Source: Polyangiaceae bacterium | GTDB lineage: Bacteria; Myxococcota_A; Polyangia; Polyangiales; Polyangiaceae | Direction: 5' to 3' | NCBI GenBank assembly: GCA_050287085.1 | Contig: JBNKBE010000012.1 | Coordinates: 1-64,000 of the forward strand | Length of the DNA stretch: 64,000 bases | In this document: one piece after another, positions 16,998 through 34,490 of the stretch | Layout: each line of letters starts with the position of its first letter | Position numbering within the stretch: the first letter of the stretch is position 1 | The notes under the pieces: model-generated | Told to the model about the DNA's origin: nothing | Seen by the model: only the letters and a program-made list of their open reading frames with translations | Database searches by the model: none | Translations under genes and position numbers: made by a program

Positions 16998-17755
16998 TCG
17001 TCGTCAGCTTCTTCTTCTTGCGGAGACTCTGGCGTGCGCAACTTGTAGCCCGAACCACGTAGCGTTTCGAGCGGCAGAGCGTCCCCTAGCTTGGCGCGCA
17101 GGCGGCGAACATGAATGTCCACCGTGCGAGGTCCGCCGTCATAGCGATTGCCCCAAACGCGCGCCAACAGGTGATCGCGAGAAAGCACCTTGCCCCGACG
17201 CTCACATAGATAGGCCAATAGTGCGAACTCCTTGGCCGTCAGCGTAACGGGCCGCCCGTGAACCGTGACCTCGTGAGCCGCCTTGTCGACGAGAATCGGC
17301 CCGACTTTGTGCCGCTCGTCTGTCGCGAACTCGCTGCGCCGCCATTCCACCGCGCGAATGCGGGCGTAGACCTCCTCCGGCACGTAGGGATGAAGCACAA
17401 AGTCCTCAAACCCGCTCGACGGATCTACACGCGCTATCTGTCCGATCGTGACCGAGATGATCGCGCCTACATTGTCAAAAACCTGCTCCTTGCGCACCGC
17501 ACGCAGGGCGGCGATCGCAAGGTCCGGACGGTCAAGCGCCTCAAATAAGAGCGCACGAGGTCGCGCTTCCGCCTCAACGTCCTCCTCAGAAAAGAGATTG
17601 ATGGGATCGTCCCAGAGATCCAGCGTTCGAACTTCGGCGCCAAGCTGGCGAAGAGTAACGGCAGCTCCGTCTTCTCGTTCGAGCAAGGGGCCATGTCCAA
17701 CGACGGCCACGAACGCTGGTCCACGGGGGTTTCTTTGATCAGAGTTGAGTGCCAC
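16994..17755 (-). CDS. OmpR/PhoB-family regulator with atypical receiver (GlnR-like)
   Basis: Canonical winged helix (LTAKEFALL, RTVDIHVRRLRAKL, RGSGY); the receiver lacks the acidic pair and has Glu at the expected phospho-Asp position. Confidence 0.85.
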   Translation of the reverse strand: MALNSDQRNPRGPAFVAVVGHGPLLEREDGAAVTLRQLGAEVRTLDLWDDPINLFSEEDVEAEARPRALLFEALDRPDLAIAALRAVRKEQVFDNVGAIISVTIGQIARVDPSSGFEDFVLHPYVPEEVYARIRAVEWRRSEFATDERHKVGPILVDKAAHEVTVHGRPVTLTAKEFALLAYLCERRGKVLSRDHLLARVWGNRYDGGPRTVDIHVRRLRAKLGDALPLETLRGSGYKLRTPESPQEEEADDE

Positions 17756-19175
17756 CTACAGTTATCCGGTCTATTTTTATGGTCGGGCAACCGACGCCAA
17801 CGGGAACGCTCTGGCCCTCTTTGCCGCAGGTCCAGATGCCATCACTCAGTTCCACATCGTGCCCCAGCATGGATACCTGCTGGAGTGTTTCCGGGCCATT
17901 TCCGATCAAGTTTACGCCCTTCAGCGGCGCGGTTATTTTCCCGTCCTCGATCAGATAGCTCTCGGTTAACGAAAACACAAAGTCGCCATTGGCGATGTCA
18001 ACCTGCCCCCCGCCGAAGGATTTCGCGAGGATGCCACGCTTGACGCTGCGTACGATTTCCTCCGGATCGTGAGGTCCAGCGGTAAGAATCGTGTTGGTCA
18101 TGCGAGGCAGCGGAACGCTTGAAAAGTCCTGACGCCTCCCGTTGCCACTCGGTGGCAGGCCGAAATGCCGAGCGCTCAAGCGGTCGTGCATATAGCCACG
18201 CAGGATGCCGTTCTCGATCAGAACGTTGCGCCGCGGCTCGTTGCCCTCGTCGTCGACGTTGAGGGTGCCGCGACTCTGCACAATCGTGGGATCGTCGACC
18301 ACCGTGCACAGCTCACTCGCAACGCGCTCTCCAATCATACCGGAGTAGTTGCTGGTCTGCTTGCGGTTGAAATCCGCTTCTAGACCGTGACCCACCGCCT
18401 CATGAAGGAGAATCCCACTGTCACCGGGGGCCAACACAACCGGCATCTGCCCCGCGGGAGCTTCGCGTGCGTCCAGGAGCATCAACGCCTGGCGCGCGGC
18501 CCGTTCCGCGTGCCAGGCCGGGCTCTTGCCTTCGAAATAACCCAGACTGGTACGGCCACCACCCCCGCTGCTACCCGACTCGCGACGCCCTCCCATCTCA
18601 GCGATGGCGCGGATCGAAAAGCGCATGAGCGGCTGGCGATCGCGAACAAAACGTCCATCGCTTGTGGCGATCAAGATCTCCCGAACCTCCTCATCGAACG
18701 ACGCCATCGTCTTGATGATGCGCGGATCGACCGCGAGCGCAGCGGCGCTGGCCGCCTCCAACAACGCGCGCTTCTCCAACCCCGAAACGTCCAGCGTGAG
18801 GCGCTCCAGCTCGTAGCGCTGAGCCACCAATCGAGGCTGCAACGCTTCGACATGTGCCGGGGCTCCGGACCGCGCGATGGCGGATGCCGTCCGAGCCGCG
18901 CGGGTCATCGCCTCCAAAGACAGGTCCTCGACGTGAGCCAAGCCGGTCGCGTCCCCAATCTGCACACGGATGCCAACCCCTAAGCTGACCCCACGAGAAG
19001 CTGACCTCGTAATACCCTCTTCAAACGAGAGCGAACCACTCGCACAATACTCGAAGAACAGATCTGCGTAGTCACCGCCATGCGCCAGCGCCACCGACAA
19101 CACCCGGCTACAGACGGCTTCGTCGATGCCCGCCGGGCCCCCAGGCGCAAATGGTGCGGTGTATGCCGTCATCAC
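17739..19175 (-). CDS. tldD: TldD metalloprotease (TldD/PmbA family)
   Basis: HEAVGHGLEADF, DDEG, GNGRR, PRMTNT, CGKEGQSVPVG. Confidence 0.93.
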   Translation of the reverse strand: MMTAYTAPFAPGGPAGIDEAVCSRVLSVALAHGGDYADLFFEYCASGSLSFEEGITRSASRGVSLGVGIRVQIGDATGLAHVEDLSLEAMTRAARTASAIARSGAPAHVEALQPRLVAQRYELERLTLDVSGLEKRALLEAASAAALAVDPRIIKTMASFDEEVREILIATSDGRFVRDRQPLMRFSIRAIAEMGGRRESGSSGGGGRTSLGYFEGKSPAWHAERAARQALMLLDAREAPAGQMPVVLAPGDSGILLHEAVGHGLEADFNRKQTSNYSGMIGERVASELCTVVDDPTIVQSRGTLNVDDEGNEPRRNVLIENGILRGYMHDRLSARHFGLPPSGNGRRQDFSSVPLPRMTNTILTAGPHDPEEIVRSVKRGILAKSFGGGQVDIANGDFVFSLTESYLIEDGKITAPLKGVNLIGNGPETLQQVSMLGHDVELSDGIWTCGKEGQSVPVGVGCPTIKIDRITVGGTQL

Positions 19176-25021: not shown

Positions 25022-25957
25022 TTGACCACGCTCCTAGCCGTTGACGACAGCAGCACCATGCGCAAGGTGCTCGAAATTACCTTCGCAAGCGAACCCTACG
25101 AAACGGTGCTGGCAACATCTGCTGACGACGCCCTATCAAAACTGGGCCAGCAGCACGTCGAAGTAGCCTTGATCGACATCACGCTCGGCGCCGAAGACGG
25201 CTACCAGCTGTGCCAGAAGGTCAAGGCTGAGTTCCCGAGAACACGCGTTGTCCTGCTCTCGAGCAAGCAGCAGGGTTATGACGCCACGCGCGGCGGAGAA
25301 GTGGGGGCGGACGACCACATCGACAAGCCCTTCGAAACACAAGCTCTGCTGGACAAGGTGGCGGCCGTGCTCGAAGCACCGGCGCTCGAGGTGCCAGTAC
25401 CGGAAGCTCCGGTGCCCGCGCCGCAGCGCGTCCCCGAGCCCGCCATGACGGCGCCCGCTCCAGCTCCGATCTCTTCTCACAAGCCCTGGGCTCCCGCTTC
25501 GAACCCCATTCCGAGCCTCAATCTCGCGCCTCGCCCCGCAGCCGCGGCAGAGCCCGCGAGTGCGCCTGGCTACAGCGCCGCTGGATACGGCGCTGCCGGA
25601 CACGGCGCTGCCGGACACAGCTCCCCCGCCTACGACGCTCCCGCGCAGAGCGCCCCAGAGCCTGTCGCCGCGCCAGCCGCGATTTCGATCCCCAGCAGGC
25701 CACAACCCAACGCAGCCAGTGGGCATCATCACCCGCAGACGAAACCCGCCCCCTCTGCGCTTGCTTCGTCGCCGGCTGTCCTCCCAACCCTCGGCGGTCT
25801 AGAAACGCGACTCGAGGCGCTTGGCCTGGGCAAGACTCAAATCGAAGGTGTCCTGGCCTTGTCCAAGGAGATCGTCGAACAGGCGGTTTGGGAGGTAGTC
25901 CCGACCTTGGCGGAAACGTTGATCAAAGAAGAGATCGCGCGACTGACGAAAGCCTGA
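25022..25957 (+). CDS. romR: RomR polarity response regulator
   Basis: N-terminal receiver, Pro-rich linker and conserved C-terminus EIVEQAVWEVVPTLAETLIKEEIARL. Confidence 0.85.
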   Translation: MTTLLAVDDSSTMRKVLEITFASEPYETVLATSADDALSKLGQQHVEVALIDITLGAEDGYQLCQKVKAEFPRTRVVLLSSKQQGYDATRGGEVGADDHIDKPFETQALLDKVAAVLEAPALEVPVPEAPVPAPQRVPEPAMTAPAPAPISSHKPWAPASNPIPSLNLAPRPAAAAEPASAPGYSAAGYGAAGHGAAGHSSPAYDAPAQSAPEPVAAPAAISIPSRPQPNAASGHHHPQTKPAPSALASSPAVLPTLGGLETRLEALGLGKTQIEGVLALSKEIVEQAVWEVVPTLAETLIKEEIARLTKA

Positions 25958-27585
25958 GCCTGGGCCCTCCCCGCACCCCCGAGTTCATCGCGTGGCTCGG
26001 CTCCACACCAGCGCCTGAGCTGCTGCGTTGCGCCGCCTCTTTCGGAGCCCCGCAGCGATTCGGGGCCTTCTGGCTGTGGAGCCACACTGCGAACGCTGAG
26101 CGCTTTGGGGTATCGAAGTGTGCCACCGGCCAAGACGAGCCCACGACCGTCCAGCTAACTAGCCGCGGGGGCATCTTTGACCGCGCCGTAGGCGGCGGCG
26201 CGCCCGTCCACTACGCCGAGGTACCCAGTGGAGTGTTGGTCGCCTCCACGTTGTTGCCTTTCATCCAAGGTCTTGGGCTCGCTCAGGCCCATGAATTGGC
26301 GACGGCCTTCTGGTTCGGGGGCAGACCCACGTTCCCCCAGGGTCAGACGCCCCTGGCGGGCGTCAAGTCGCTGCCGCCGGGCACCATCCTTCACGTCACA
26401 AGCGAGCGAAAGCTGTGGGTCGAGGCTTCCTTCCATCCGCCCGCTCAGTCCCGACGGCCCCCTCGCCGAGAGCTCTTCCTGGAGCATGCCGCAGCCCTGC
26501 GCGAAGAGCTGAGTGGTGTCATCGCCCGCGAATGCCCGCGCGACGAGACCCTCGTCTTCTACTCCGGAGGGGTGGACTCAGGCCTGCTTGCGGCGCTGGC
26601 AGCAGCCCAAGGCAAGCGCTTGCAAGCGCTCAGCGTTGTGCCCTCGGGCTACGCGGCGGATGCACCCTGGGAACGGGCGCTGGTCGAACGCCCCTTGTTG
26701 ACGCGTTCTTTCCGGGCCCACTCGGTGCTCGAGCTGGATCAAAGGCGCTGGATAGACGCCCTTCAGCAGGCACCTGCGGCCCCATTTCCCATCGTTTATC
26801 ACCCCTCATTGCTCTTGCTCCAGACGTCCCCGAGACACCCGCTCAACACGGTGTTGCGAGGCGAGTTCGCGGACGAGGCCTTCGGGTCCAGGCTGCGAGT
26901 CGGCGATTGGCTGGACGCCCATTCCGTGCTGCAGATACTGAGCACCACCCCAGACCGCTGGCCCCTTGGGTGGCGCACCCCGCTGAGCAAGCTCAAGCGT
27001 CAATGGCTGGCGCGCCGCAGCGCTGAAGCGAGCCCAATGCAAACGCTCCCCCGCTGCTTTCGCGGCGATCTTCGCGATGAATACGCCGCCTGGCGCCGCG
27101 CTCTAGGAGGCGCCCGCAGGGCGCTGGGCCTGCTCGATCTGCGGGATGGCATTCTCACTGAGGCGTGGGAATCCGCGGGACAAAAGGGGTATCATAGCGT
27201 CTTTCCCTTCATGCACCGGCGGGTCTTGGAACTCGCCTACTCGCTGCACCCGGCGGAATTGCTCGGCTCGGGCACCAAACGAGTGCTGCGCGTTGCGGGC
27301 CGAGGAGTGTCGCTAGAGGCACACCGCTTGCGGGCCGACAAGGGCGTGCTGCGGGCGGCATCCCCGCATCGTACCTTCCCGCTGCCGCGCTTATCTGCGG
27401 AAAGCGAGGCCTTGTTGTGCCCACGCTGGCTCGACGACGCCAGCGCGAACGGGGTCGGACCCGCCGACGCGTTGCGACTCAGCGGAATCGAGCATATGAT
27501 GAAAAGCTATCGCAGCCTGAGGGAGCAATACGAAGATGACGTCGACGCCGGTGCAGCAGGAAAAACTCGAGAGCCAAAGCGCTAG
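25888..27585 (+). CDS. Asparagine synthetase-like protein, probable lasso peptide cyclase (C protein)
   Basis: GVKSLPPG, PP-loop YSGGVDS, GEFADEAF, FPFMHRRVLELAYSL, KRVLR, RADKG; no N-terminal glutaminase Cys; a lasso-type precursor follows. Start uncertain (TTG 25888 or CTG 25954). Confidence 0.75.
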   Translation: MGGSPDLGGNVDQRRDRATDESLSLGPPRTPEFIAWLGSTPAPELLRCAASFGAPQRFGAFWLWSHTANAERFGVSKCATGQDEPTTVQLTSRGGIFDRAVGGGAPVHYAEVPSGVLVASTLLPFIQGLGLAQAHELATAFWFGGRPTFPQGQTPLAGVKSLPPGTILHVTSERKLWVEASFHPPAQSRRPPRRELFLEHAAALREELSGVIARECPRDETLVFYSGGVDSGLLAALAAAQGKRLQALSVVPSGYAADAPWERALVERPLLTRSFRAHSVLELDQRRWIDALQQAPAAPFPIVYHPSLLLLQTSPRHPLNTVLRGEFADEAFGSRLRVGDWLDAHSVLQILSTTPDRWPLGWRTPLSKLKRQWLARRSAEASPMQTLPRCFRGDLRDEYAAWRRALGGARRALGLLDLRDGILTEAWESAGQKGYHSVFPFMHRRVLELAYSLHPAELLGSGTKRVLRVAGRGVSLEAHRLRADKGVLRAASPHRTFPLPRLSAESEALLCPRWLDDASANGVGPADALRLSGIEHMMKSYRSLREQYEDDVDAGAAGKTREPKR

Positions 27586-27754
27586 CGGCAACGCCGAATC
27601 GGTCAGCGATCCTGCCGTGACGATCGGAACGGACGCCGGCAAGCTGCCCTACAGCAAGCCCACCGTCAGCCGCTTGGGAACTGTGCAGGAGCTGACCCAG
27701 TTCACCAAACAGGGACCCGAAAACGAGTTCCCCCAGGGCGGCAGCGGCGGGTAG
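27536..27754 (+). CDS. Lasso RiPP precursor peptide
   Basis: Leader YSKPTVSRLGTVQELTQ matches YxxPxL/VxxxGxxxxxT with Thr at -2; predicted core FTKQGPENEFPQGGSGG has Glu at 7 and 9; GAGGGAG RBS 10 nt before ATG. Confidence 0.8.
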   Translation: MTSTPVQQEKLESQSASGNAESVSDPAVTIGTDAGKLPYSKPTVSRLGTVQELTQFTKQGPENEFPQGGSGG

Positions 27755-28129: not shown

Positions 28130-28313
28130 CTCGCACACGGTCTTAGGGTAGTCCCCCAAGCGAGCTCGAGCCAAGCACTTTCGCCGGCGAACCCGACCCT
28201 GAGCAACGCATATCGTGCGCGCAGCGTCAATGCATCCGGTCACGATCTCGTGCGGCAGGAAACACGCGTCGCGCTTGCAGCGAGGGGCGCGAACACGCGA
28301 TAACCCGAGCGCG

Positions 28314-29024
28314 ATGAGTGTCGAAGCTGTGCTGCGAGCCGAGCAAGTCACCAAAGTCTACCAGATGGGTGATGTTCGAGTGGACGCTCTTCGTGGCGTA
28401 GACTTTCAGCTATACCGGGGTGAACTCTTGGTTCTACTGGGCGCGTCTGGAAGTGGCAAGTCCACGCTCCTAAACATCGTAGGCGGACTCGACACTCCCA
28501 GTTCAGGTCACGTCTTCTACGAGCAAGCGGACTTGAGCGGTGCTGAAGATGCCGTCTTGACGCGCTATCGGCGTGAACACGTTGGATTCGTTTTCCAGTT
28601 CTACAACCTTATCCCCAGTCTGACGGCTATGGAGAACGTAGCACTGGTTACCGACATCGCCGCCAATCCGCTTTCGCCGCGCGAGGCACTTGCGCTGGTG
28701 GGCTTGGAAGCGCGAGCGCACCACTTTCCGGCCCAGCTATCTGGTGGGGAACAGCAGCGCGTTGCCATCGCGCGCGCCATCGCAAAGCGTCCCGATATCC
28801 TGTTATGCGACGAACCAACAGGTGCGCTGGACTACCGTACCGGAGTGCAGGTGCTGTCGGTATTGGAGCGAGTGAACAAGGAACTGGGCGCCTCCACCGC
28901 CGTGATCACCCACAACGCGCCGGTAGCCGAAATGGCCGATCGCGTGGTCTCACTATCAGATGGACTGATCGTCAGCGATGAATCAAACCCGAATCGCAAG
29001 AGACCCGAGGAGTTGAGTTGGTAG
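28314..29024 (+). CDS. ABC transporter ATP-binding protein (LolD/MacB type)
   Basis: [37 protein letters not shown]. Confidence 0.93.
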
Positions 29025-31390
29025 GCGCGTTGCAGAAAAAGCTGCTGCGCGAGCTGCTGCGCTTGCGTGGGCAGGTGGTCACCATTTCGCTCGTGGTGGC
29101 CTGTGGGATTAGCAGCTATCTTGCGATGCAGTCCGCATACGACTCGCTCGTACACTCTCGTGACGCCTACTACGAGCAATACCGCTTTGCCGATGTCTTT
29201 GCGACCTTGCACCGCGCTCCCAGAGCCGTAGCGGCGCATATTGAAGCGCTAGCGGGCGTTGCCCGCGTCGACACGCGCGTGGTGGAGAAGGTGTTGGTGC
29301 CCATGCCGGACTCGCCGCGGCCTGCGAGCGGCACGCTCATCGGACTGGCGCCCGACGCCGCTGGCGGTCGCTTGAACGACGTTCACATCAAGGTGGGTCG
29401 CGCGCTGGATCCGGCGCGCGCGGACGAGGTCCTGGTACTGGCGGCCTTTGCCGAAGCGCACGGCCTGCAACCGGGTGACTCTTTGGACGCGGTGCTCAAC
29501 GGAACGCTGCGCACCCTGCGCATCGCGGGCCTGGCTCTCAGTCCCGAGTTCGTGATGGCCATCTCACCAGGCTCGCTCAGCTATGACCCCGCTTTGGTCC
29601 CTGTGTTGTGGATGAATGGGGACGCGGTGGAGGCTGCATTTGGCATGGCAGGAGGCTTCAACGACGTAGCCCTCCAGCTGGATCAGTCAGCCAACGTGAC
29701 CGGAGTGCTGGCCGACGTGGATCGTCTGATCGCGCCCTACGGCGGAATTGCCGCGGTATCCCGCGACAAGCAGATCTCAAACTACATGCTCCAGGGCGAA
29801 CTCACGCAATTGGCCAGTATGGCCAACTTCGTCCCTTTCTTGTTCCTGTTTGTGGCGGCATTGCTCGTCAATGTGGTGCTTTCCCGACTCGTCCAATTGC
29901 AGCGTATACAAATCGCGACCCTGAAGGCGATTGGCTACCGCGACTTTGCCATTGGTCTGCACTACCTGCTGCTCGTAAGCGTGGTCGTCTTGCTCGGGGC
30001 CGCACTCGGGGTGTTGCTCGGCGCCTACGCGGGCAAGGCCATGACCAACATGTATACGGGGCAATTCTTCCGCTTCCCGGAGCCACGCTACCGCCTGCAG
30101 TGGCAAGCCATCGCCTTTTCCGTGGGAATAAGCCTCGCATCGGCCGCAGTAGGGGCCCTCATCACCGTGCGGCAAGTAGTGGGCATGGCACCTGCCGATG
30201 CTATGCGCCCCCCGAGTCCGCCATCCTACAAGCGCTCGGTGCTGGAGACGGTTGGGTTGTGGCAGCTGCTAAGCCCCGCGACGCGCATGATTTGGCGCGA
30301 ACTATCGCGACGCCCTCTTCGCCTGGCCCTTTCAGCGCTGGGTATCGCTCTCGCAACAGGCCTCATGGTGCTAGCTCGTTCCATGTGGGACGCGATGGAC
30401 GACCTCGTCACAGTGCAATTCCATCGGGCCATGCGGGAGGATATCACCGTCACGTTTCAGCGGCCCGTTTCGCCCGAAGCAGTGGCCGAGCTCAATCACC
30501 TGCCGGGCGTCTTGCTCGCTGAAGGACTGCGTGCGGTACCAGCACGGGTTCAGGTGGGCCATCGCTTTCGCGACGTCATCGTCAATGGCTACCCCGAAGT
30601 GACGCGTCTACGGCGTGTGCTCGACACACGAGGCAAAGAGCACCCCATCCCCGATAGCGGTGTCATGATGACAGAAACCCTAGCCACCTTGCTCCACGTC
30701 GCCCCCGGCGAAAGAGTGCACCTCGCGCTTCGCGAAGGATCCTGGCCCGAGTACGACATCGTGGTGCGAGAACTCGTCAACGAGCCTTTTGGATTGCAGC
30801 TCCACCTTCCAATGGCCGAACTCAATAGGTGGCTCGGGGACCGAGGTGCGCTCACGTCGGCGCTGCTGCGCGTCGACATGAACGAGTTTTCCAATGTCGA
30901 GCAGAAGCTCAAGCAGTTGCCCTGGATTGCCAGCGTGAGCAGTCCGCACGACTTCCAACGACAGTTTGATGAACAGAGCGCCGCGATGATGAACTTCTTC
31001 ACGTTGATCATGACGCTATTTTCGGCGGTCATCGCGATCGGTGTAGTCTACAACAACGCCCGGGTAGCGCTATCTCAGCGCAGCAGGGACCTGGCCAGCT
31101 TGCGAGTGCTCGGTTTCACCCGCCGCGAGATCGCGAGCATCATCTTCGGCGAGCAGGCGGTGCAGGTAGTTCTTGCTCTGCCCATCGGACTCGTCATCGG
31201 CGAGTGGCTAAGCCAAGCCATGATGTCCAATGTCGATCCTGAGGCCTATCGCTTCTATGTGCGCATTTCGACGCAAACCTATCTATTCGCGATCGGGGTA
31301 ACGATCGCCTCCGCCGTGTTGAGCGCCTTCATTCTGCGGCGCAAGATCCACCGCCTCGATCTCATCGGGGTACTCAAGACCCGCGAGTAA
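29018..31390 (+). CDS. FtsX/MacB-like ABC permease (duplicated domains)
   Basis: Two MacB/FtsX repeats with IATLKAIGY and LASLRVLGF motifs; multiple TM helices. Confidence 0.9.
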
Positions 31391-31395
31391 CTGCC

Positions 31396-32625
31396 ATGAC
31401 AGACAAGAATACCTCCTCGCAAAAAACCGCTCGCAAGTGGAGCAAGCGGCTGGTTCTACTAGCGCTGGGACTGGCTGTTGTGGCCGCTATTGCCTTGGCG
31501 GCAGCTCCCAAGCCTGTAGCCGTCGAGATCGGCCGCGTCGAAGCCGGAACCCTCGTGGTCACCGTCAACGAGGACGGGCGCGCCCGGGTCAAGGATCGCT
31601 TCGTCATCTCCGCGCCCCTGTCCGGGAACCTGGCTCGCATCGAACTGCACCCGGGCGATCCGGTCAAACAGGGTGATGTCCTGGCGCGCCTCGTTCCGGT
31701 GCGAGCCCCACTGCTGGACGCGCGCAGCCGTTCAGAGGCTGAGGCAAGGGTCTCCGCCGCATACGCAGGCGTCCGGCAAGCCAAGGCACAGATCGCTCGC
31801 GCCGAAGCGGCGTCGACCTTCACCAGGACGGAAGTAGAGCGCGTTCAGGCATTGGTGAAGGGGCAGGTTATCGGGCGGGAGGAGTTGGATCGCGTTCTGT
31901 TCGACCAACGGACGCGCGACGCTGAACTGACCTCCGCTCAGTTCGGAGCCAAGGTGGCGGGACACCAACTCACGATGGCGCAGGCGGCGCTCGGTCACCT
32001 GGACGGCACGGAGCCTAGCAACGGTCCAACGCTCACCGTCACGAGTCCCATCAGCGGGCGGATTCTTCGGGTCATCCAGGAGAGCGAAGGAGTGGTCGCC
32101 GCCGGCACCCAGCTGGTGGAACTCGGCGACCCTAGGGCGCTTGAACTCGTCGTCGACGTACTCACCGGCGACGCCGTTTCCATTCACTCCGGCAGCGCAG
32201 TCACGGTGGACGGCTGGGGCGGAAAGCCATTGCCGGCGGTGGTACGGCTCGTAGAGCCGAGCGCCTTCACGCGCGTTTCGGCCCTGGGCATCGACGAGCA
32301 GCGCGTCAACGCCATCATCGATCTCACCGCTCCGTACGAGGATTGGCAGGCGCTCGGTGACGGCTACCGCGTGGAAGCAAGAATCGAAGTCTTTCGCGCG
32401 GACAACGCAGTGCTCGTTCCACAGAGTTCACTATTTAGGCTGCGTGATGCCTGGGCCCTCTACGAAGTCGTGGAGGGCCGGGCAGAGCGACGCATCGTCG
32501 AAATCGGTCGCCGCAACGACATCCACGCTCAGGTGCTGAAGGGCATTGCGCCCGGTGCCGAAGTCGTCATGCACCCAAGCGATAAGGTGACGGACCAGGT
32601 CGCGCTGGCGCGCCTCCAAGACTAG
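31396..32625 (+). CDS. HlyD-family periplasmic adaptor (membrane fusion protein)
   Basis: N-terminal TM, lipoyl halves ISAPLSG / VTSPISG, alpha-hairpin, VSALGIDEQRV. Confidence 0.9.
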   Translation: MTDKNTSSQKTARKWSKRLVLLALGLAVVAAIALAAAPKPVAVEIGRVEAGTLVVTVNEDGRARVKDRFVISAPLSGNLARIELHPGDPVKQGDVLARLVPVRAPLLDARSRSEAEARVSAAYAGVRQAKAQIARAEAASTFTRTEVERVQALVKGQVIGREELDRVLFDQRTRDAELTSAQFGAKVAGHQLTMAQAALGHLDGTEPSNGPTLTVTSPISGRILRVIQESEGVVAAGTQLVELGDPRALELVVDVLTGDAVSIHSGSAVTVDGWGGKPLPAVVRLVEPSAFTRVSALGIDEQRVNAIIDLTAPYEDWQALGDGYRVEARIEVFRADNAVLVPQSSLFRLRDAWALYEVVEGRAERRIVEIGRRNDIHAQVLKGIAPGAEVVMHPSDKVTDQVALARLQD

Positions 32626-32656: not shown

Positions 32657-34036
32657 CTAGAGTGAACCTGCCCCAGGCTTCGGCTCCCCCACGGCAGCAC
32701 TCAAAGCGGGTTCTGCCCAATCACAAGTGGTCCTCTCGTCAACGGATTCCGATGCAGCACGCTCCTCGAGCTCGATCGCATTCGATTCTTCTCCAGCATC
32801 ACACGGCTTCGAGACAAGGGTGTTTATCTCGAGCTGCCCTGTGGGCTCTCCGTCGGACGGGTACTCGAGCGACAGGGTTATGCTGATTCGCTCGACCCCA
32901 TCTAGCTCAACGTCCCGAAGTAGCGCTGCCAGCTCCCGGGCGCGGGCCTCGAACTCCCCATAAGCCGTCAACGACGCGGACTCGCTTGGAGCCGATTCTG
33001 CACGCGAGACAACCGTCAATGCGGCCGGAAGCGATAGGTTGACGCGTCCGTCCGCGCTCTTGAGAGCTATCTGCGGCGTCCCATAGAGAACGTCGTCGGA
33101 CGAGGCCCAATCCGCCTGCCAACACAGCTCAGTCGCGGGGACAGCCGAGATCTCTAGAGTCGTTGACGCCCCAGGGCCCCAATCAAGAGCCAGCGACCGG
33201 CGGTCTAGCCCGAGCTGCCACTCGCGAGCAGTACGCCCGCGCCACTGCCTTTTCCCGGCAAGCGAGCCCCCGCCGACGCAGCGCTCACTCTTGGGCCAAT
33301 AAAAAACTGGAGCACGGCTTTCGACGTCTTCCGAGTCCACAGCCCCGAAGACTGCATCCAGCTGCCCGTAGCTGCCCCTGTCGCTGAGCACACCGGTGAG
33401 CTGAAAGCCAGTCAACACCTGCTTCGGGGACAAGTCCACCTCGAGAGCTGCCGGCGGCAATGATGCTTCGAAAGCCACAGCTTCGGGGCGGGTTGTACGA
33501 ACAAGAACTGCAACCCTTTGCTCCACCTGCCCAAAAGCGCGGACCGTGCCCTCGTACTCGAGCTCCAAATACGGCGCACATGCCGGCACCTCGTTCGCGC
33601 TTTCGTAGGTCACCCAATACGCCGCGCTTGGCTTGGCCCGAAAGGTCACGTCCAGCTCAGGCGTCGTGGCCTTCTCGCTGAGCGAGACCCCCTGCTCGCC
33701 GGCGGCAAAGGTCCCTTCGGCGTGGACCCCACCCGCAAGCAGTAGAGCCACATCTTCGCTCAGACGCTCGAGCTCCGCGGCGTTCGATGCTTTGTCCGCA
33801 GGCCTGCGCCTTCGTATGCCTTCGCAATCCGGAACGTCATTCGGGAGCGCCTCCACGGTATCGAAGCCAGTGCCATCTCCCGTCTGTCCCCCCAACACGT
33901 CTTCGCCAAACGGTGGCTCCGTTCCCTCGAGCGGCTCGAGCGAACTGTAGTTGCACGCCGCGAAGGCAGCGCCCAAGCACCCAAGCAGACGGCGGCAACG
34001 GGCCGACGAACGGGGAAGCACGGAGGAGCAAGACAT
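32657..34036 (-). CDS. Hypothetical lipoprotein
   Basis: Long acidic ORF; LLGCLGAAFAAC lipobox; start re-set to MSCSSV. Confidence 0.6.
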   Translation of the reverse strand: MSCSSVLPRSSARCRRLLGCLGAAFAACNYSSLEPLEGTEPPFGEDVLGGQTGDGTGFDTVEALPNDVPDCEGIRRRRPADKASNAAELERLSEDVALLLAGGVHAEGTFAAGEQGVSLSEKATTPELDVTFRAKPSAAYWVTYESANEVPACAPYLELEYEGTVRAFGQVEQRVAVLVRTTRPEAVAFEASLPPAALEVDLSPKQVLTGFQLTGVLSDRGSYGQLDAVFGAVDSEDVESRAPVFYWPKSERCVGGGSLAGKRQWRGRTAREWQLGLDRRSLALDWGPGASTTLEISAVPATELCWQADWASSDDVLYGTPQIALKSADGRVNLSLPAALTVVSRAESAPSESASLTAYGEFEARARELAALLRDVELDGVERISITLSLEYPSDGEPTGQLEINTLVSKPCDAGEESNAIELEERAASESVDERTTCDWAEPALSAAVGEPKPGAGSL

Positions 34037-34490
34037 CGGTTCACTATGTCGATGATGGTCTCCCCTGTCCAGGGTCGCTACGCACGTACTGTCCAGGCAG
34101 GACGCGCCCCAATGTGCGAATTGACCCCATGATCCGGGGGCAATTTTCACAACGTTGACATCGCTGGTCCGAATCCAACGGCGCCCACCGTGCTCCGGCT
34201 GCGCCGCCACCCCCGAGAATCGCGACCCGATTCGCTCAAGGGAAACGCGGCGTAGCGACGGCTGGCGCGGGGCTCCAAGACCGTCGCCCAAGTCGTCGGT
34301 GTGGCGACTTTCAGGCGCGGTACAGACCTGGGACTACGCCGTCCTCATTCTCAAATGGCAGCACACCGCCCAACGCCCAGAGGTAGGACTTGGTTTCGTC
34401 AGCAGCGGCAGAGCGGGCCGCCTCCCAGTCGGATCGTGCTCGGAACGCGGCACCTTCGCGAGCCCGCGAAGACCCACAGGGTACGAGCGC

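Follow-up and report, generated by a model that had tools for sequence, protein, structure and literature searches.

Introduction

The general logic of lasso peptide biosynthesis is set out in PMC13352647, and the described systems closest to the one considered below are the paeninodin-type clusters, arranged padC-A-K-B1-B2-D and carrying kinases such as PadeK, ThcoK and SyanK. The paeninodin kinase modifies the C-terminal Ser of the linear precursor, and a His-Lys-Asp-Asp motif is reported for lasso kinases in the same source (PMC9266682). Paeninodin-like clusters often lie within capsular-polysaccharide loci, where their role is given as unknown (PMC13381572). Pseudomycoidin, made by the psm cluster with its kinase PsmK and nucleotidyltransferase PsmN, unthreads when unmodified, and its authors speculate that phosphate and hexose together hold the thread (PMC6993621). 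Citrulassin offers a case in which a gene located apart from the cluster completes a lasso pathway (PMC8498205). Here we describe a lasso-type cyclase gene and its precursor gene in a 64,000-nucleotide stretch of DNA (the window, G000:C12:1-64000) from a Polyangiaceae bacterium, whose draft genome (G000) comprises 6.2 Mb in 160 contigs. Judged from gene content and by analogy with described systems, the pair probably belongs to a split five-gene operon of the kinase-bearing lasso type, the two halves of which would act in trans to yield a Ser-phosphorylated, paeninodin-like macrolactam peptide.

Results

The initial annotation, made from the letters of the window, had described a minimal locus consisting of cyclase plus precursor only. 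That is true of the window and false of the genome. Pfam searches of the whole assembly returned one transglutaminase-like gene and two PqqD genes, and on a second contig, C4, three genes lie in tandem: B1, a lasso-type PqqD/RRE protein (C4:230494-230793), B2, a transglutaminase-like leader peptidase (C4:230790-231233), and an HprK-like kinase (K; C4:231230-232180), each overlapping the next by 4 nucleotides. This B1-B2-kinase operon (C4:230494-232180, equivalent to L008:8495-10181) is followed by a gap of 95 nucleotides and then by the end of tsf on the opposite strand. With B1 as the RRE and B2 as the transglutaminase-like peptidase, the genome encodes on C4 the two components expected of a class II lasso system. 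A profile of the B1 family (15 rows) gave TbiB1 as its first PDB match (E 1e-27), and the model NF033537 matched all 15 rows of the B2 family. The B2 of the source genome retains the invariant Cys and the AHAW motif, and its kinase retains the invariant His, P-loop Lys and Asp-Asp (H128, K149, D166 and D167 in alignment A3). About 6 kb from B1 on C4 there is an NTP_transf_5 gene, set amid wzc, O-antigen ligase, DegT, glycosyltransferase and acetyltransferase genes.

The order of these genes in relatives indicates how the two contigs belong together. Across 383 genomes of the same family, the source genome included, the cyclase occurs in 16 and the kinase in 16, with both present in 15; in 13 of these 15 the kinase is adjacent to the cyclase, so that the lasso genes form a single locus, and the same-family clusters lie among polysaccharide genes. 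One of the two remaining genomes, G012, has kinase and cyclase both at contig ends, and the source genome is the only one of the 15 in which the two sit inside two different long contigs (C4 and C12). The single cyclase-only genome, G203, is an 84%-complete bin whose contig ends inside the cyclase; G012 and G203 were considered as further splits and set aside as contig breaks. The kinase-only genome, G376, carries a different lasso cluster (L117:3676-8716), ordered B2-C-A-K with B1 on the opposite strand and a precursor that has no near-terminal Ser. In loci from other phyla the kinase lies within about 2 kb of the cyclase in 16 of 19 cases, the others being a disrupted locus, a short contig and an unrelated match. 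The cluster is present in five of 18 genomes of the same genus, and the whole B1-B2-K-C-A operon stands beside tsf-rpsB in G097, G157 and G163, which belong to that genus, and in G009, which belongs to another. On the evidence of this shared gene order, the window pair forms the 3' part of a conserved B1-B2-kinase-C-A operon, and the corresponding 5' part is on C4. Because four relatives keep the whole operon beside tsf, the cyclase and precursor appear to have moved from the tsf site to their present position behind a gene for a RomR-like regulator. The 95-nucleotide gap between kinase and tsf, which forms a hairpin when read on the strand of tsf (z -3.5), holds no remnant of the moved genes.

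Two further loci were considered in this connection. An actinomycete genome, G383, was examined as a second independent split and was rejected as unproven, since its genes fit one disrupted locus: at L115:5840-10996 B1-B2-kinase is followed, near the contig end, by repeated short fragments, all from one part of the cyclase, with small unrelated open reading frames between them, and at L036:1-5228 the contig opens with a cyclase fragment and carries an intact cyclase-precursor-nucleotidyltransferase set, which together look like repeated insertion into the gene. A PqqD-kinase-nucleotidyltransferase locus on contig C41 of the source genome (L009:2413-6403) was tried as the partner of the window pair and was likewise rejected. 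It encodes a PqqD-like protein with a different, acidic C-terminal tail and far lower family-profile scores, an HprK-like kinase, two glycosyltransferase-like open reading frames and an NTP_transf_5 protein, lies among glycosyltransferases, and has no lasso-type precursor, peptidase or cyclase.

On the C4 side, a divergent gene of roughly 1,270-1,410 codons stands upstream of B1 at nine of 13 same-family loci, two more being cut by the locus end and two having no such gene. Loci recorded for it are L008:4305-8345, L054, L055, L059, L060, L061, L062, L074, L075 and L119; its product has FG-GAP repeats where scanned, Ig/FN3 domains in some cases and, in the source genome, a lipoprotein-like N-terminus.

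A split of this kind could in principle be an artefact of assembly or binning, with an operon that is truly contiguous or with contigs that come from different organisms, and the source is a draft that looks uncultured and is present in one sequencing run only. Both halves nevertheless lie deep in long contigs. In run X1 the C12 junction is spanned by one contig of 32.6 kb (depth 15.8) and the C4 junction by one of 37.3 kb (depth 13), at similar depth and with 0 differences in either case; as X1 may be the source sample, this serves as a check of the assembly and not as a second observation of the split. Neither junction shows repeats or mobile-element traces, the tetranucleotide distance between C4 and C12 falls at the 60th percentile of within-bin pairs, and the contamination estimate of the genome is 0.85%. 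We therefore regard an artefact as extremely improbable.

The precursor gene occupies 27536..27754 on the forward strand and encodes 72 residues, a 55-residue leader followed by a 17-residue core. The initial annotation had noted a canonical lasso leader in this frame and its overlap of 50 nucleotides with the cyclase frame, and both observations hold: the lasso-leader model NF033521 scores it at 20.1 bits against a cut-off of 19. The sequence AGGGAG lies 10 nucleotides 5' of the ATG, and the codon adaptation of this short gene is at the 100th percentile; a promoter-like site at 27472-27500 was given no weight, one such site having been found where 0.5 is expected by chance. The leader carries the motif YxxP-x-V...LG...LT with Thr at position -2 (27650..27697, forward strand), which would provide the signals for B1 binding and B2 cleavage. 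The predicted core, FTKQGPENEFPQGGSGG (27701..27751, forward strand), begins with Phe1, contains the previously reported Glu7 and Glu9 as candidate acceptors, and has a Gly-rich tail with Ser15 as the predicted kinase target. Calculated masses are 1735.780 Da for the linear core, 1717.770 Da once cyclised and 1797.736 Da for the cyclised form bearing a phosphate. A YxxP/WxxP leader, Thr at -2 and an acidic residue at core position 7-9, the features of a class II precursor, are thus all found here.

Within the genome this precursor stands alone. Of three matches in a motif scan of all 6.2 Mb it was the only convincing one, and a hidden Markov model built from 24 relatives, the window sequence excluded, placed it first among all six-frame open reading frames (E 9e-6, the next at E 1.9); neither the motif scan nor the profile search turned up a further lasso precursor or a second family cyclase in the assembly. 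We compared the 25 family precursors, the window precursor included, with 20,000 shuffles, bearing in mind that kin are not independent. Asp or Glu stands at core position 8 or 9 in 23 of 25 (shuffle mean 6.0), 24 of 25 have a Ser no further than third from the end (shuffle mean 9.0), and no shuffle in 20,000 reached either count. The Ser is last in six, penultimate in 13, third from the end in five and fourth in one, while the first core residue is Gly in 13, Lys in five, Ser in three, Phe in two, Leu in one and Val in one. All 25 leader motifs open with Tyr, and of 28 cores 21 are free of Phe, Trp, Tyr and Arg in the tail beyond the second residue after the ring. The window core keeps its presumed kinase site, Ser15, with the kinase on another contig. 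Phe at core position 1 has no mention in the available parts of the reviews consulted, and such precursors may already be in mining tables. A precursor in the same genus (L075:4149-4349 in G163) has Val1, two Cys and a terminal Ser, and is a candidate disulfide-bearing lasso peptide.

The macrolactam synthetase lies at 25888..27585 on the forward strand, as an open frame of 565 codons from a TTG at 25888, or as a protein of 543 residues from a probable CTG start at 25954. It had been described as an asparagine-synthetase-like frame with SGGVDS and no glutaminase Cys, and this description was borne out: the Asn_synthase family PF00733 matches it at E 5e-13, the SGGVDS ATP-pyrophosphatase loop spans residues 226-231 (26563..26580, forward strand), and the N-terminal Cys is absent, as it is in nearly all of the family, where Cys occurs at position 2 in one of 131 rows. 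Family match and fold alike therefore describe an asparagine-synthetase-like cyclase that has no working glutaminase domain. It is not a glutamine-dependent asparagine synthetase or amidotransferase (TIGR01536 27 bits against 267), and the true AsnB-like gene of the genome sits elsewhere on C12. An AlphaFold model from an alignment of eight rows (mean pLDDT, the predicted local confidence, 71) has residues 1-21 disordered and its first strand from residue 23; Foldseek matched it to TsnB9, beta-lactam synthetase and AsnB, and an Atlas search returned generic asparagine-synthase clusters only. The hidden Markov model check proposed at the outset gave a divided answer, in that the leader model was passed and the curated lasso-cyclase cut-offs were missed, with NF033561 the best at 38.5 bits against 300 and NF033535 at 10.1 against 525. 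Six relatives miss these cut-offs too, so the curated models do not cover the subfamily. On sequence and precursor pairing together, the enzyme is a lasso-type cyclase, as the pairing had suggested, from a subfamily in which no close member has been solved or curated.

We also asked what the unusual motifs mean. GEFADE (residues 325-330, 26860..26877, forward strand) and PFMH (residues 440-443, 27205..27216, forward strand) are present as first reported, and had been taken as departures from GxGGDE and PFLD that might signal a specialised or decaying enzyme. To judge this we used a subfamily set gathered by profile search, which gave 273 clusters at E 1e-30 or better, of which the full-length ones among the best 150 supplied 130 representatives. 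The SGGVDS residues are identical in 103 of the 130. GEFADE is the commonest form of its motif (33 of 130) and GxGGD[EQ] occurs in none; P and F of the second motif are near-invariant, its third and fourth positions vary across the family, and PFLD occurs in two of 130. The window cyclase retains 16 of 17 near-invariant family columns. The motif deviations are thus the norm of the subfamily, and we rejected them as a sign of decay. The only real hint of decay is the poor start of the cyclase gene, to which the initial annotation had not referred.

That start lies at the junction with the host gene 5' of the cyclase (25022..25957, forward strand), which encodes a RomR-like response regulator with a Response_reg domain and stands outside the cluster in relatives. 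Its layout of receiver, Pro-rich linker and Glu-rich C-terminus with Trp and Pro corresponds to the RomR architecture described in PMC3441718, and a gene of this kind points to a myxobacterial host. No cyclase match was present at any of 16 same-genus RomR-like orthologue loci, for which 0-1.5 kb downstream was covered, and the downstream genes vary. The stop codon of the regulator overlaps the probable cyclase start as CTGA (25954..25957, forward strand), in the same register as the kinase-stop/cyclase-start of relatives, where a 4-nucleotide overlap (ATGA, GTGA or TTGA) is found in ten of 16. The N-termini of the relatives' overlap-start cyclases align from residue 23 of the window frame, where the first strand of the model also begins. 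This shared register, together with the model, points to CTG 25954 as the probable start, coupled to the RomR-like gene, with TTG 25888 as the alternative. As the stop-start overlap has been retained, the cyclase and precursor are probably read through from the RomR-like gene. Six bases at the junction are common to two same-genus regulators and several family cyclase starts; exchange through this short homology is a speculation.

Several observations weigh against a pathway that still works from two sites. The split was found in one genome only. Neither of the available starts (a TTG lying within the upstream gene, a CTG in the overlap) is preceded by a ribosome-binding site, and among 81 CTG overlaps in the genome one has no nearby common start (it may or may not be that of the cyclase). 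The cyclase has the longest branch of 143 tree rows, and some 35 residues of its vestigial glutaminase domain are gone; the fraction of conserved columns that it keeps is 0.77 where the median is 0.90, near the bottom of 131 rows that are biased upwards, being the best-scoring hits. B1 (8 of 11) and B2 (9 of 13) have the fewest conserved columns among 15 rows each, and B2 falls just under its model cut-offs (31.1 against 33 and 25 against 26). Described lasso kinases modify the last residue, while Ser15 has two residues after it. One tree inferred without constraint set the cyclase apart from its genus, the kinase tree is unresolved (p-AU, from the approximately unbiased test, 0.29), and the B1 and B2 trees are weakly resolved.

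Much of this would also be expected of a fading relic, in which the pair moved recently, lost an ATG or GTG start and is barely translated while both halves decay. The weak start, the long branch and the low column retention in cyclase, B1 and B2 all agree with such a course, and a cluster as patchy as this one (16 of 383 family genomes and five of 18 in the genus) is easily lost. Against it, none of the five genes has a stop or frameshift, codon use is ordinary, all catalytic motifs are retained, and the old site is clear of remnants. Identity between the moved cyclase and three same-genus cyclases is 28-31%, and those three share 28-35% with one another, which implies no extra divergence after the move; a neighbouring lipoprotein that did not move matches B1 and B2 in its excess divergence. 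No close relatives for estimating dN/dS (the ratio of non-synonymous to synonymous substitution rates) were found, a metagenome scan being empty and the best homologues 31-36% identical. We consider the relic unlikely overall while allowing it a substantial chance; were the split copy dead, the locus would be merely a snapshot of operon break-up.

The trees also bear on whether a related pair gained from another organism has replaced the native cyclase and precursor; its fit with the resident B1, B2 and kinase would be uncertain. The highest pairwise scores fall to Gemmatimonadales and other-genus proteins, ahead of those from the same genus, and the unconstrained tree agrees in placing the cyclase outside its genus clade. 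Two of three trees place it beside the same-genus clade, namely the mixture-model tree (support 87) and the 143-row tree (support 90); the same-genus grouping was not rejected (p-AU 0.85), the constrained tree being 25 log units better than the free one, and codon use is native. Long branches limit all of these trees. The mixture-model, kinase, B1, B2, free and constrained trees exclude the frameshifted L047, L048, L049 and L052 and the unrelated L053, and the last two also exclude eight near-duplicate or short rows. Replacement from elsewhere seems to us very improbable.

Other genes of the window stand close to the pair. Half a kilobase downstream, on the same strand and beyond a zinc-ribbon gene on the opposite strand, 28215-32625 encodes a LolD/MacB-type ATPase of the ATP-binding cassette type, an FtsX permease and a membrane-fusion protein; this system is a possible exporter, though it was not seen within the cluster in relatives. 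A TldD-family metallopeptidase gene is found 7 kb upstream (17739-19175). TldD/E removes leaders in microcin B17, and nothing ties the present TldD gene to the precursor. An open reading frame of 544 residues on the minus strand (32657-34291) matches no family above cut-off.

Discussion

The presence of B1, B2 and the kinase elsewhere in the genome suggests a pathway that remains functional with its genes at two widely separated sites, as opposed to a minimal system of two genes. This reading draws on the gene content, the presence of each gene in a single copy, frames and catalytic motifs that are intact, and the undivided order seen in relatives. By analogy with paeninodin and pseudomycoidin, B1 would bind the YxxP leader, the kinase would phosphorylate Ser15 of the linear precursor, and the nearby nucleotidyltransferase may extend that phosphate. 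B2 would then cleave after Thr-Gln, and the cyclase would adenylate Glu9, in keeping with the family norm of 8-9, or else Glu7, and link it to the amine of Phe1. Since the Gly/Ser tail offers no bulky plug, the modified Ser would hold the thread. As to its history, the cyclase and precursor would have been excised from the interval separating kinase and tsf, then inserted anew after the RomR-like gene.

It is also conceivable that cyclase and precursor operate by themselves, with the leader removed by a host protease, and that B1, B2 and the kinase serve the polysaccharide locus in some other way. Pseudomycoidin does form without B1/B2 in heterologous hosts (PMC6993621). In the window precursor, for its part, the YxxP leader is complete and both Thr at -2 and the Ser of the kinase site are retained, the genome offers B1, B2 and the kinase no other lasso-type substrate, and cyclase and precursor occur alone in no same-family genome apart from the incomplete bin whose contig ends inside the cyclase. 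We hold this to be highly unlikely, and favour the split operon acting in trans.

If that operon is functional, there are consequences for genome mining, as a lone cyclase with its precursor, or a lone B1-B2-kinase stub, can be halves of one pathway that window-based tools would score as two broken clusters. At position 1 the subfamily cyclases would take Phe, Lys, Leu or Val, and the kinases would modify a non-terminal Ser, both of which would be useful for lasso engineering. The link to surface polysaccharide extends the question of what phosphorylated lasso peptides do beyond Bacilli. More tentatively, and with the odds rather against the whole, one might see the 273 clusters as a large unstudied subfamily making Gly/Ser-rich peptides with unusual first residues, their thread locked by a phosphorylated and decorated near-terminal Ser, as part of the surface-polysaccharide machinery, with the pathway of the source genome run in trans, its cyclase and precursor newly brought under transcription of the motility-polarity gene RomR through a CTG-coupled start. 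Among the titles covered we found no characterised myxobacterial lasso peptide and no study of this cyclase subfamily, though mining tables may list members. Nor did we find a report of a lasso cluster with core genes split over two loci in a literature search that covered openly accessible main texts, the nearest precedent there being the remote tailoring enzyme of citrulassin (PMC8498205).

Set beside the known systems, the family shares with the paeninodin-type clusters a precursor, an asparagine-synthetase-like cyclase and a split B1/B2, and the HprK-like kinase with His-Lys-Asp-Asp that marks that type is also found here, together with a conserved Ser at the C-terminal end (PMC9266682). 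It differs in its order, B1-B2-K-C-A, in having no exporter in the operon and in its hosts, which are outside Bacillota. Its leader has YxxP where the paeninodin-like leader has WxxP (PMC13381572), and the Ser is third from the end in the window precursor and last in only six of 25 family precursors. Unlike those of the paeninodin type, the cyclases here fall far below the curated lasso-cyclase cut-offs, and in the source genome the genes are divided over two loci. The cluster works like the paeninodin type, so far as analogy can tell, yet departs from it in three defining features: the terminal Ser, the WxxP leader and the single locus. Pseudomycoidin has in common with it a kinase, an NTP_transf_5 gene and a plug-free tail, and differs in that its terminal Ser is modified, its genes form one cluster and its first residue is Ala, where the window core has Phe. 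The albusnodin/ikarugamycin-family cyclases (NF033561) are the best lasso-type profile match to the window cyclase, at a score far short of their cut-off, and the best structural matches are the AsnB-fold enzymes TsnB9, beta-lactam synthetase, CarA and AsnB at 12-19% identity. For citrulassin the remote gene is a tailoring deiminase only, whereas in the genome described here it is the core machinery that is divided.

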